Source: Octopus vulgaris
Lineage: Eukaryota
Direction: 5' to 3'
Assembly (NCBI GenBank): GCA_951406725.2
Contig: OX597818.1
Coordinates: forward strand, 142,414,001-142,478,000
Length of the DNA: 64,000 nucleotides
Of the stretch, positions 17,935 to 61,245 are shown one piece after another; the stretch's first letter is position 1, and every line of letters begins with the position of its first letter. Both the position numbers and the translations under genes were made by a program. Under the pieces are notes generated by a model, which worked only from the letters and a program-made list of their open reading frames with translations, did not search any database and had not been told where the DNA came from.

Positions 17935-18673
17935 TGACTATTTTCAGGACATCCAAGAGAAGTGGAAGAAAGAAATTCTGATTATTGATTATTATAAAAG
18001 GAAATAGCATATTAAGTTCTTCTCAAACTGGATACCTAATGTGAATGCTTGCAATAGAGTAGACCCTGGTAAATGTACTCAAGAACCAGGAAGCCACATT
18101 ATCCAGACAGAAGATTAAATTAAACACCAAGGGCTTTCACACATAAATCCACATTTTTCTTCTTCACCATCTACTTCTGTTTCTATAAGAAATATTCTCA
18201 ATGTAAGAGATGTACTTTCAACACTGGAAAATCTCCTTTCAACATTGGTCCTTATCAATGGACAAGTCAGTAGGCTTCATTAAATCCAATACTATATCAG
18301 GCTAGGTCTTCACTAACTTGGGGAATTCAAGTCTTTTGCAAAGTTACTCCAAAGCAATAAGTTTTGTAGCCTTATTTTTGGAATTCACACACACACAGAA
18401 ATATGAGCGCACATGCATAGACACACATACACACACAATAGTAGATTCGTTGAAGTGTGTTAAACATTAAAAGATATTTTGTAATGTTCATAATGTTCAA
18501 ATATGAACTGCAAAAGCAAAAATTTGATCAACTGCATTTAAATGCCCGAATTGTGAGGGACTATATATTGGTGAGACAGGGAATGCATTATCAGAACACT
18601 CATGAGTTCACAAACAACAAATCTGGAACACTAATGTTCATCAAATTCCATTGAATGAACATATAGAAACATA

Positions 18674-26554: not shown

Positions 26555-26991
26555 CGTGTGTGTGTGTGTGTTCGCGTGTGCGTGTGTGTGTGTGTATGTA
26601 TGTTTCTCATGGGCTCCTTTCAGTTTCTACCTACCAAATTCATTCAGAAAGCTTTAGGTAGCCTGGGTCGATAATAGAAACCACTTGCCCAAGGTAAAAT
26701 AATAAGCACTGCAGTGTGCTTATAAGAATTGCTCTTTGACCACTTGTTTCAGGTTCAGTCTTCAGTCCTGTTATGTGCTAATTTAGATAGAGTCAGGTCA
26801 ACCAGTGCCTTATGAAGGAATTTGGTAAATAAAAACAGTGGGACACCTGTTTTATATGTATAATATATATATATATATATATAAATATATATATGGTTGT
26901 GCGGGTGCGCATGTGTAGGTATGGACATGTGTGTTTACGCGAATACTATGAACATTTTTACTCCCTTACCTTTACTAGCATTTTTCCAATG

Positions 26992-27059
26992 GCCAGATAA
27001 CTGAAGAGATGGCAGCATGGGTTTCCACCCCAATGTCCGAAACTGAGATTTATCATGGC
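26992..27059 (+). ncRNA. Degenerate type I hammerhead candidate
   Basis: GCCA-GATAA-CTGAAGA...CC-GAAA-CTGAG-AT-TTATC-A-TGGC. Helix I is intact; helices II and III are decayed. Confidence 0.5.
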
Positions 27060-27343
27060 TACCGAATAATTGTCACATATATTATACTTACAGATAAATT
27101 CCTCTATTTACATAATATCGAGGTCTCTTTCATTCTTTTCTTGTCTTACCATTTCTATCAACCGTTAATGCTTCTGTATTTCATGTTTCTGTATTCCATT
27201 ATTGTTTTTTGTTTTTTTATATTCGTCCCTTTTGCTGTCCTGGTGTTCGTATGCATTCGATCCTTCTTCCAGGAAATCTACGCTCCCAGCTTAGTTTTTC
27301 TAATGCTCGTTGCTTAGTTTTTCTTGGAGGGCTGGCCGTGATC

Positions 27344-27411
27344 TAGTAATCTCAAGATTAATCAGCCGAAATTACTACGATGATCCGGTTCTTGACTGAA
27401 GACTGAGGGTT
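27344..27411 (+). ncRNA. Non-circularly permuted hammerhead candidate
   Basis: TAGTAAT-C-TCAAGA / AGCC-GAA-ATTACTA / TCTTGA-CTGAAGA-ctgag-GGTT. Helix III is 7 bp, helix I is 6 bp, and the cleavage triplet is AUC. Confidence 0.6.
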
Positions 27412-27489
27412 TCGAATGTCCTGTCCGTGTTTATTGTATCGTCTTCTAAGAGTTATACGTTCTTGTCCATGTTGTATTTTTCTACATAC

Positions 27490-27528
<39 letters not shown>

Positions 27529-32188: not shown

Positions 32189-32761
32189 TACTTTATTATT
32201 GCTGAAATTACTAAAATTATTTTCATTCATTAACTAGATGTTATTTTTAATTTCATTTGGTTTCTTTACATATCTATTATTTTTATTATTATCATTAGTT
32301 TTTATATCACTATTCCTATTATCAAATTTACTGATTTTATTTATAATATTATCTTGAATATTGGTCTTTATGTCAATTAAATATATCGTCATTATAAGAT
32401 AAATATGAAATTCTCTTACTAATATTATATACTAATGCTTTTTTCATAGAAGGTGGATGATTGCTTTGATAATTTCATCATCATCATCATCATCATTTTA
32501 ATTCATAATTTGGTTTTATATATGGTTCATGCATTCCAGATAATAAATTATAGTTCGTATCCAAGTAATTAATTAAATTATATTCTTTTTCTATAGTTAT
32601 AGGTTGACCAAATCTTTTTAGAAATTTAAATAATCGGGGTTTTTTTATGAGTTCTAGGCATCTATTCGATGCATTCTCAACTACAAATAGTGCATATATA
32701 AATGAAAAAATGTATTGATAAACAAACTGAGTGTTCAACCAGGCAGGAGACAGACACAGAA

Positions 32762-32832
32762 GGTCCCTAATTCTTCATCAGTTATCAACCAGATGGTATT
32801 ATTCAGTTTCGCACCATTAATGATAACACTGA
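32762..32832 (-). ncRNA. Second non-circularly permuted hammerhead candidate (probably inactivated, N17=G)
   Basis: TCAGT-G-TTATCA / GGTGC-GAA-ACTGA / TGATAA-CTGATGA-agaattag-GGACC. Confidence 0.6.
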
Positions 32833-33439
32833 GAACTTCCTATGCTGGCAGTGTCTATGAAAGTTGTGGAGAATATAGGGCCAAGAGCAAACAAAAAGTG
32901 GACATACGAAAGTGGATAAGTGTAATTTAAGACGATGGACAAAGATGAAATAAATAAGCCTCAGGACATAAAAGACAAGAATGGTGGGTAATGCTTAGAA
33001 GGCATCCTAAAGGATTAGAAAACAGCAAATAGCAAGACAGTGAGACACAGAGAATGTATGATCAGTCAGCTATGCAACTGGTGTGAAAAAGGGAGAGAAA
33101 GAAAGAAAAGCTGGTCACAGGTCACGTGTCAGCAGCAGGTAGAGGAGAGAGAGGAAGAGACAAACCGATTGAGAAAGAAAAAAGGGAAGGGATGAAAGGG
33201 AAGAAAGGAGAAAGGCTAGAAATAGAAGTAAGAGGGTGAGAGAGAGAAAAGGAGAAAGAGTGAAGGCAAGAAATGGAGTCTGCAAGGATATATAAAAAAC
33301 TTACTGTTATATATACATATATTTGTAAAAACCATTCTAGCATGGAAAAATCATGTAAAATGAGCGAATGAACAAATAGTAATAAACAAAGTAAATTCTT
33401 GCACTGCTATCAGAATGTAGATTAACTTTAACCCTTTAA

Positions 33440-59932: not shown

Positions 59933-61245
59933 GGAGCAGGTCAGCTGGAGAGAAGGCCAGCTGGAGAGCAGGCTAACTGGAGTGCAGGTCAGCTGGAGAG
60001 AAGGCCAGCTGGAGAGCAGGCCAGCCGGAGAGAGGGCCAGCCAGAGAGAGGGCCAGCTGAAGCTGGAGAGCAGGCCAAATGGAGAGCAGGCTAACGGGAG
60101 AGACGGCCAGCTGGAGAGCAAGCCAAATCGAGAGCAGGCCAGCTGGAGAGCAAGCCAGATAGAGAGCAAGCCAAATGGAGAGCAGGCCAAATGGGGAGCC
60201 AGCCAAATGGAGAGCAGGCCAGCTGGAGAGCAAGCCAGCTAGAGAGCAAGCTAGCTGGAGAGCAGTGCAACTGGAGAGCAAGCCAGCTGGAGAGAAGGCC
60301 ATCTGTAGAGAAGGCCAGCTTGGAGACCAGACTAACTGGAGAGCAAGCCAAATGGAGAGCAGGCCAACGGGAGAGCAGCCCAGCTAGTGAACAAGCCAAA
60401 GGGAGAGCAGACCAGCTGTAGAGCAAGCGAATGGAGAGCAAGCGAATGGAGAGCAAGCGAATGGAGAGCAACCCAAATGGAGAGCAGGCCAGCTGGAGAG
60501 CAGGCCAAATGGAGAGCAGGCCGAATGGAGAGTAGACCAACGGGAGAGCAGTCCAGCTGGTGAATAAGCCAAATGGAGAGCAGAGCAGCTGGAGAGCAAG
60601 CGAAATTGCGAGCAGGCCAAAATGAGACAGGCCAACTGGAGAGCAGGTCAGCTGGTGATCAAGCGAAATGGAGAGCAAGCCAAATGGAGAGCAGGCCAAG
60701 TGGTGAGCAGGCCAACTGGAGAGCAGACCAGCTGGAGAGCAAGCCAAATGGAGAGTAAGCCAGCTGGAGAGCATGCCAGTTCGAGAGCAGGTCAGTTGGA
60801 GAGCAGGCCAGTTGGAGAGCAGGCCAACTGGAGAGCATGCCAGTTGGAGAGCAGGCCAACTGGCGAACAGGCTAGTTAGAGAGCAGGCCAACTGGAGAGC
60901 AGGCCAGTTGGAGAGCAGTCCAGTTGGAGAGCAGGCCAGCTGGAGAGCAGGCCAGCTGGAGAGCAGGCCAGTTGGAGAGCAGGACCAACTGGAGAGCAAG
61001 CCAGCTTGAGACCAGGCCTGCTGGAGATCAGGCCAACTGGAGAGCGAGAGCAGGCCAACTGGAGAGCAGGCCAACTGGAGAGCAGGCCAGCTGGAGAGCA
61101 GGTCAGCTGGAGAGCAGGCCAACTGGAGAGCAGACCAACTGGAGAGCAGACCAACAGGAGAGCAAGCCAGCTGGAGAGCAGGCCAGCTGGAGAGCAGGCC
61201 AGCTGGAGAGCAGGCCAGCTGGAGAGCAGGCCAGCTGGAGAGCAG
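59933..61245. repeat. 16-bp minisatellite (CTGGAGAGCAGGCCAG, about 80 units) inside a family-C SINE
   Basis: The SINE-C tail lies on the left (59872-59932) and the SINE-C body resumes on the right (CTGGATGCCCTTCCTAATGCCAACCAC). Confidence 0.92.

Follow-up and report, generated by a model that had tools for sequence, protein, structure and literature searches.

A repeat family of the Octopus vulgaris genome, family B, carries a predicted hammerhead ribozyme whose strands stand in reversed cyclic order and whose core is opened between A9 and G10.1. The joint explanation, which includes cleavage and Naiad-clade identity, is regarded as highly probable. In one copy, the motif as first described lies on the minus strand at 32833-32758 of the window, the whole stretch of 64,000 nucleotides that was analysed. 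From 5' to 3', the parts are ordered as IVa, hairpin V, IIa, bridge a, site block, IIb-GAAA-IIIa, bridge b, Ib-CUGANGA, and IVb. Two flush helices, IV and V, stand in place of the A9-G10.1 bond. As predicted from sequence, the design is the reversed ring of the SGC and CSG hammerhead types with its opening at a fourth position, within the core block.

Location and state of the window copy

A preliminary description of the window had reported a permuted hammerhead at 32762-32832. The letters, strand, and coordinates were as claimed when checked on the minus strand, and helices III and I, the GAAA and CUGAUGA segments, and the order site-GAAA-core were confirmed in this copy (Table 1). The proposal that a non-circularly permuted hammerhead lies near the 3' end of a retroelement-like repeat is likewise supported, the repeat being family B. 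The pyrimidine-rich tract at 32840-33290, which had been described as 3' UTR-like, is present, but it is the body of the same element. An upstream reverse transcriptase (RT) had also been supposed; none was found at the window copy, which is non-coding, and an RT link runs only via a sister family and other organisms.

Table 1. Predicted ribozyme features of the window copy (family B) and its companion (family A), in window positions
Feature	Position	Strand	Basis
Family B element, solo near-full monomer, non-coding, pyrimidine-rich body, TATATA run at end	32701..33309	-	Match to other copies 33309-32726; 3' end read from sequence
Helix IV 5' strand, partner 32774-32765, one bulged base	32870..32880	-	89.9% of cells paired; two-sided change at 3 of 10 pairs (56 copies); in MFE fold of window copy
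Hairpin V, family stem CCGC/GCGG, broken here by four changes	32855..32869	-	4 pairs, 80% paired, 2 with two-sided change
Helix II strand IIa with position 10.1 (family G; window copy A), partner 32816-32811	32849..32854	-	Two-sided change at 5/6 pairs
Bridging helix 5' strand, partner 32796-32789; role of the type-SGC stem I-II helix	32840..32848	-	84.8% paired; two-sided change at 4 of 8 pairs
Site block: helix III strand with U16.1 (32833-32828, paired with 32807-32802), N17 (32827), helix I strand (32826-32821, paired with 32787-32782)	32821..32833	-	Descriptor, alignment
Predicted cut of window copy	between 32827 and 32826	-	Hammerhead model
TTAA linker, helix II strand with C11.1 (32816-32811), GAAA (32810-32807), helix III strand	32802..32820	-	Descriptor, alignment
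Bridging helix 3' strand, helix I strand (32787-32782), CUGAUGA (32781-32775)	32775..32796	-	Descriptor, alignment
Helix IV 3' strand, first base directly after A9 (the 'insertion' and part of the 'helix II' of the preliminary description)	32765..32774	-	Alignment
Companion: copy of young family A truncated on its 5' side (unit 843-857 nt); its end, in (TA)n, is 150 nt past the cut	27161..27495	+	Copy comparison
Intact family A ribozyme (predicted)	27254..27418	+	IV, V, II in MFE fold
Family A ribozyme, helices IV, V, II	IV 27254-27266 with 27405-27418; hairpin V 27267-27329; II 27330-27335 with 27362-27367	+	
Family A ribozyme, site and core	III 27344-27350 with 27371-27377; C17 27351; I 27352-27357 with 27390-27395; GAAA 27368-27371; core 27396-27402	+	

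The window copy was compared with the family-B majority in the 56-copy alignment. It differs in 11 columns. N17 is G and position 10.1 is A; hairpin V accounts for four more columns, the bridge and the helix III end for one each, and the last three are neutral. In family B, position 17 is C in 45 of 56 copies and G in two, so that the G noted earlier at the cleavage site is real but is not the family state. Position 10.1 is G in 43 of 56 copies, and the 10.1/11.1 closing pair, A-C here, is G-C in 33 of the 53 ungapped copies. With at least three defects (G17, G10.1 to A, and a broken hairpin V), the window copy likely no longer cleaves. The earlier view that this copy is probably dead therefore stands, but its G-G mismatch in helix II does not, the real defect there being G10.1 to A. 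Every core base is kept in 14 of the 56 copies.

An Rfam scan of the window gave no hammerhead at E<=5 and returned microsatellite noise only; a pseudoknotted strand order is expected to be missed by it. A descriptor of the order site-GAAA-CUGANGA (helix III >=5, helix I >=4), run on both strands of the window, found exactly two sites, the copy above and 27344-27420 (+).

Other features were seen in the window. A remnant of a Penelope-type GIY-YIG domain (43 aa, E 1e-6) lies at 18543-18671 (+). The segment 36772-39733 is a minisatellite of period 163 and 18 copies with strong G skew, and its minus-strand open frames of 840-990 codons are likely open through composition. A GC-rich tandem repeat (period 16, 81 copies) occupies 59934-61245.

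Covariation of the six helices

The pairings were evaluated on 56 distinct full-length family-B copies, obtained from 83 profile matches and selected either for their similarity to the window copy or because they matched an anchor that contains the core. Under the six-helix model, 87.1% of cells were paired and 63 cells showed two-sided change. None of 500 shuffles was as high on both, a control that takes the copies as independent though they are related and that scores a structure drawn from the same sequences. The number of pairs with two-sided change (16) was not above shuffles (79/500 as high). Slid controls of the model paired at 27-40%. Helices I, II, and III, which flank the core, were 83-93% paired, and the hammerhead core (CUGANGA, GAAA, U16.1-H17) is the family-B majority at all positions; the window copy fails at N17.

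The true partner strand of helix II lies upstream of the cleavage site (32854-32849), with two-sided change at five of six pairs. In one subfamily, both strands have been exchanged, from GCACC/GGTGC to GTGCC/GGCAC, and only the upstream partner stays complementary. The preliminary description had instead drawn helix II as GGTGC with a downstream GGACC, which would make the motif an ordinary type-SGC hammerhead closed by a strand downstream of CUGAUGA after a looped-out insert. The S-G-C block order agrees with that drawing (PMC10085705), and families A and B both allow four of its five pairs. Across the 56 copies, however, none of the five pairs changes on both sides, which is not above shuffles, and one column pairs in 1 of 54. 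The swapped subfamily keeps the upstream partner only, and the best downstream partner reaches 1-2 bp in 5 of the 10 metagenome elements described below. An ordinary type-SGC fold is thus very improbable, and the upstream helix II is retained.

The segment after CUGAUGA had been described as an 8-nt insertion; it is one strand of the extra helix IV. The bases after A9 pair with a strand located 45-55 nt upstream of the cut. Helix IV follows A9 directly, and hairpin V sits flush between the 5' strand of helix IV and G10.1, so that the linkers have zero length. Because of these zero-length linkers, we infer that IV and V may stack with helix II and the core into a perfect four-way junction, by which A9 and G10.1 would be kept in position. 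The flanks of IIa and Ib are connected by a bridging helix. Early helix assignments, namely a 1-nt insert for family C and downstream bridging stems, were dropped on finding the upstream partner.

The evidence for the pairings consists of covariation within family B and of wholesale sequence change across families. The compensatory changes first claimed between the two window sites cannot be read as such: the sites belong to families A and B, whose references have no blastn match to each other and are not alignable as DNA. The kinship suggested with 27344-27411 holds for the strand order; the architecture is common to both, but no homology can be traced, and the companion lies on the plus strand.

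Repeat families with the same design

Family B comprises at least 193 copies, counted by exact 20-nt anchors in the 2.8 Gb genome with a filter keeping about three quarters. From 40 scored of 1068 candidates, 41 matches were obtained at 84-95% identity. Same-strand tandem copies are spaced by 676-815 nt, inverted neighbours occur, and many copies end in (TA)n.

Family A is young, with 40 of 40 scored copies identical over 121 nt and 1302 exact anchors in the genome. Its non-coding units of 843-857 nt form partial tandems, up to tetramers, with a 3' end about 150 nt past the predicted cut; the first 30 loci all end in (TA)n or in the next unit. What looks like a decayed type I hammerhead lies about 100 nt upstream of the family A copy in the window, at 26987-27065 (+), where CUGAAGA...CGAAA keeps the canonical order and a helix I is possible.

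Assembled contigs from four presumed-RNA runs span the companion. At 27359-27399, high-depth contigs of these runs place another sequence upstream of the GAAA-to-core segment of family A, and within it helix II could form a local hairpin. One 19-nt motif taken from this other sequence was absent from the octopus genome.

The preliminary description had asked for a genome scan against a control. With families A and B excluded, the degenerate pattern TTAAT-W-NNN-CGAAA-N22..27-CTGANGA gave 224 matches in the genome and 5 in the reversed control. Judged by these sequence matches, the window motif is not a chance occurrence. The matches revealed further families, A' and C, and the design recurs in four octopus families beyond B (A, A', C, and D). 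Two more divergent octopus families show the same block order (L062, L087).

A fixed 3' end, 5' truncation, partial tandems, inverted 5' copies, and microsatellite targets were all found in families A and B. The window repeat is likely a non-autonomous Penelope-like element (PLE).

Truncation at the predicted cut

The 5' ends of family A copies were located relative to the predicted cut. The sample was the first 100 listed of the 1302 anchors, which lie at +21..+40, and it is almost unselected and not truncation-enriched. By eye, 33 copies begin at +1..+20, five of them exactly at the cut, and one begins at -1..-25 (binomial p 3e-8). The site is crossed without a scar in 65-66 copies, and one copy has an internal deletion. 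When the first 30 copies were measured by script, 12 start at +1..+20, none at -1..-43, 12 are scattered over 800 nt, and six are full units; all end near +150. In family B, which is older, 7 of 30 copies start within 35 nt 3' of the cut and 1 of 30 within 35 nt 5' of it.

This cliff of 5' truncations would be explained by a template whose 5' end lies at the scissile bond. TA-microhomology does not account for it, both sides of the cut being A/T-rich. From the cliff in the sister family A, it is predicted that the ribozyme design likely cuts in the cell. The unscarred crossing copies (66 of 100) would then mean that cutting is incomplete or reversed.

The same crossing copies, two-thirds of those listed for family A, would fit a non-catalytic RNA element that binds the RT or stabilises the RNA, with the cliff marking a transcription start or an RT stop. 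Against such an element, the cliff coincides with the predicted bond, and an RT that copies in the 3' to 5' direction would run into the structure at +75 instead of +1. Moreover, the core bases and N17 as C, A, or U are kept in 10 of 10 metagenome elements and in the octopus representatives, while every helix changes. We give the non-catalytic element very little chance of being right, and a cleaving hammerhead remains the preferred interpretation.

In the Anolis PLE, the available account shows internal RT initiation downstream of the hammerhead (PMC11167929), which would give a fixed 3' end. According to the same account, cleavage was dispensable for insertion of Anolis Poseidon in vitro, and no reads ended at the site.

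Link to Naiad elements

In the consulted part of Craig et al. 2021 (PMC8557442), Naiads are described as lacking canonical hammerheads, and eight are flagged 'HHR_half_core', including an Octopus vulgaris family. Family D matches the 3' end of Octopus Naiad, and its motif has 244 exact genome matches (control 0). Naiad RT remnants were fetched at 40 loci out of 71 matches, and at 22 of these loci the family D ribozyme stood behind them in the same orientation. Locus L155 holds an internally deleted Naiad with a D end on both sides. By contrast with this N-terminal GIY-YIG and RT ORF on the same element in family D, families A, B, and C had no ORF and no adjoining Naiad ORF. Families A, A', B, and C were never on the same strand behind Naiad RT remnants (0/40 loci), and C stood twice on the other strand.

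Naiad consensi of PMC8557442 were read by eye over their last 330-380 nt (52 of 54 consensi). The core-opened design could be parsed in two from Octopus, three from Acropora, and one from a ctenophore, the last with a short helix I; the Acropora consensi share the TTAAT linker of families A-C. Six nematode consensi contain an intact type CSG, and the remainder was not assigned to a form. The 3' ends of bivalve, hemichordate, Clytia, and Morbakka Naiads (PMC8557442 File S5) carry another conserved motif, rich in GC, that may resemble a twister-type ribozyme; a swap of ribozyme classes among Naiads is conceivable.

Metagenome elements were collected by aligning 37 Naiad-like proteins, which gave 80 contigs; 8 with an ORF running to the contig end and 10 with less than 200 nt of UTR were left out, and 62 were used. 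An order-free descriptor at a preset score matched 16 of the 62 Naiad-like 3' UTRs in sense and none in antisense, the other 46 having no match at that score. Ten of the 16 have the order site-GAAA-core with an upstream helix II, six are CSG, and none has the circular order. Five of the six CSG matches are distinct (L236, L238, L273, L292/L299, L251), and one has a non-adjacent helix II.

The ten split elements have ten different perfect 6-bp upstream helices II. Flush helices IV and V, which were not among the search criteria, were above shuffled upstream sequence in all ten (0-2 of 200). All core bases are kept in them, with C, A, or U at N17. Four or five octopus rows, decayed copies mis-assigned by the automatic descriptor at the site or at V/IV, were not counted as support. 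An N-terminal GIY-YIG match was present on the contig for eight of the ten. In a quick, midpoint-rooted RT tree, five of the ten form one tight clade, and the octopus RT falls among the remaining, scattered five. At least two changes are required for the split form on this tree, so a single origin is not shown.

Family D and the metagenome elements thus show the design to be a Naiad-clade ribozyme. For families A, B, and C we infer the same, and they probably descend from Naiads. All Naiad ORFs found in the octopus genome are broken (longest open frame 361 aa). The present mobiliser of family A would accordingly not be among the Naiads found, every ORF being broken though the family is young.

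Two young PLE families with a C-terminal endonuclease (775 aa and 784 aa) lacked the core-opened motif at their 3' ends. The 775-aa family (L122-L137) has no CUGANGA there, and the 784-aa family (L309-L319) has a degenerate minimal hammerhead-like end. Either of these autonomous families is a candidate for moving family A in trans. A 775-aa RT with C-terminal GIY-YIG beside one family A copy (L032) was rejected as its source, since it is a separate insertion whose family is without the motif at the 3' end. Pfam assigned no family to a 275-aa fragment.

Proposed mechanism

In the proposed cycle, the RNA would fold in cis, like type-SGC, and transcripts would be cut after N17. A Penelope-type RT would start about 125-150 nt downstream of the cut and copy towards the 5' end. 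It would run out at or just before the cut end, giving truncated copies; on templates with an uncut or re-ligated site it would continue and produce multimers.

Minimal Penelope hammerheads act as dimers of neighbouring tandem units or in trans. With the same pairings, the active unit here might likewise be assembled in trans or as a dimer of tandem units, or might need the protein of the element. With an Ia-IIb linker of only 1-4 nt and three helices that cross, folding may be difficult; competing hairpins appear in MFE folds, tandem arrays are common, and the Anolis PLE hammerhead is described as protein-assisted in the available account (PMC11167929). However, type-SGC with its typical 3-nt linker cleaves in cis in the consulted part of PMC10085705, all strands lie within about 115-165 nt, and helix III has 4-7 bp and is mostly not palindromic. 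Assembly in trans or protein dependence is therefore considered unlikely, and folding in cis is preferred.

A wider idea is offered tentatively and is, on balance, doubtful: Naiads across animal phyla may rely on hammerheads of the reversed cycle, with the core-opened form in octopus, coral, and further lineages and CSG in nematodes, and the core-opened form may be built to close circles. After two cuts, each monomer end would carry half a ribozyme. The halves would re-pair via helices II, III, and IV and the bridge (about 30 bp, compared with helix I alone in type I). Self-ligation would then be favoured, leading to the scar-free trimers and tetramers seen in the genome. The cofold gain of the two products, modelled without pseudoknots, was 11-16 kcal/mol. 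It is speculated that the products stay paired by these ~30 bp, favouring ligation to circles and multimers.

Comparison with known systems

The nearest known system is type-SGC (HRIMA-1 and variants; Eckert et al. 2023, PMC10085705), for which the consulted part of the paper reports validated cis cleavage at 0.007-0.19 per min and occurrence only in metatranscriptomes and metagenomes. Both designs keep a full core and the reversed order site, GAAA, core; in both, a short linker separates helices I and II, and a bridging helix is present. The bridging helix has 5-11 bp in the metagenome elements and 4 bp in the family A window copy. The difference lies in block C, which is assumed to be uninterrupted in type-SGC; in family B, the stem II strand lies on the 5' side, and IV and V replace the A9-G10.1 bond. 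No stem II strand was found 0-2 nt after CUGAnGA, where helix IV follows A9. The same source assumes that the block stem I-CUGAnGA-stem II is uninterruptible, and the predicted structure contradicts this assumption.

Type CSG is known from two metagenome sequences in the available part of PMC10085705. It shares the reversed cycle and a stem II strand linked to the site block. Unlike the octopus design, its chain is opened between the G and C blocks, the core is intact, and there is no IV or V.

The present families would extend non-circular RNA permutation from anonymous metatranscriptomes to animal genomes. The truncation cliff provides genomic evidence for cleaved RNA as the RT template. The role of Penelope hammerheads also becomes directly testable, with a 180-nt RNA and over a thousand near-identical copies. 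Hammerheads with additional helices were reportedly treated by Weinberg in 2015. That work and Hammann 2012 may cover A9-G10.1 inserts; in the literature compared, no description of a core-opened hammerhead was found.

Naiad PLEs, as far as covered by the consulted part of PMC8557442, share (TA)n targets, 5' truncation, partial tandems, and inverted 5' copies with the octopus families, and family D matches the 3' end of Octopus Naiad. They differ in being described as without canonical hammerheads, and octopus families A-C are without an ORF. The seeming lack of hammerheads in Naiads may have an answer here, in that the searches all used circular-order models.

Non-LTR retrozymes, in the available part of their description (bioRxiv 10.64898/2026.07.22.740005), are similar in that they derive from PLE pLTRs and consist of non-coding units, arranged head to tail, with one hammerhead in each. 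Their hammerheads are of type I and were searched with type I models only. In contrast, the octopus units of 680-860 nt do not carry one type I hammerhead per tandem unit: their block order is not circular, and their predicted ribozymes are pseudoknotted and core-opened.
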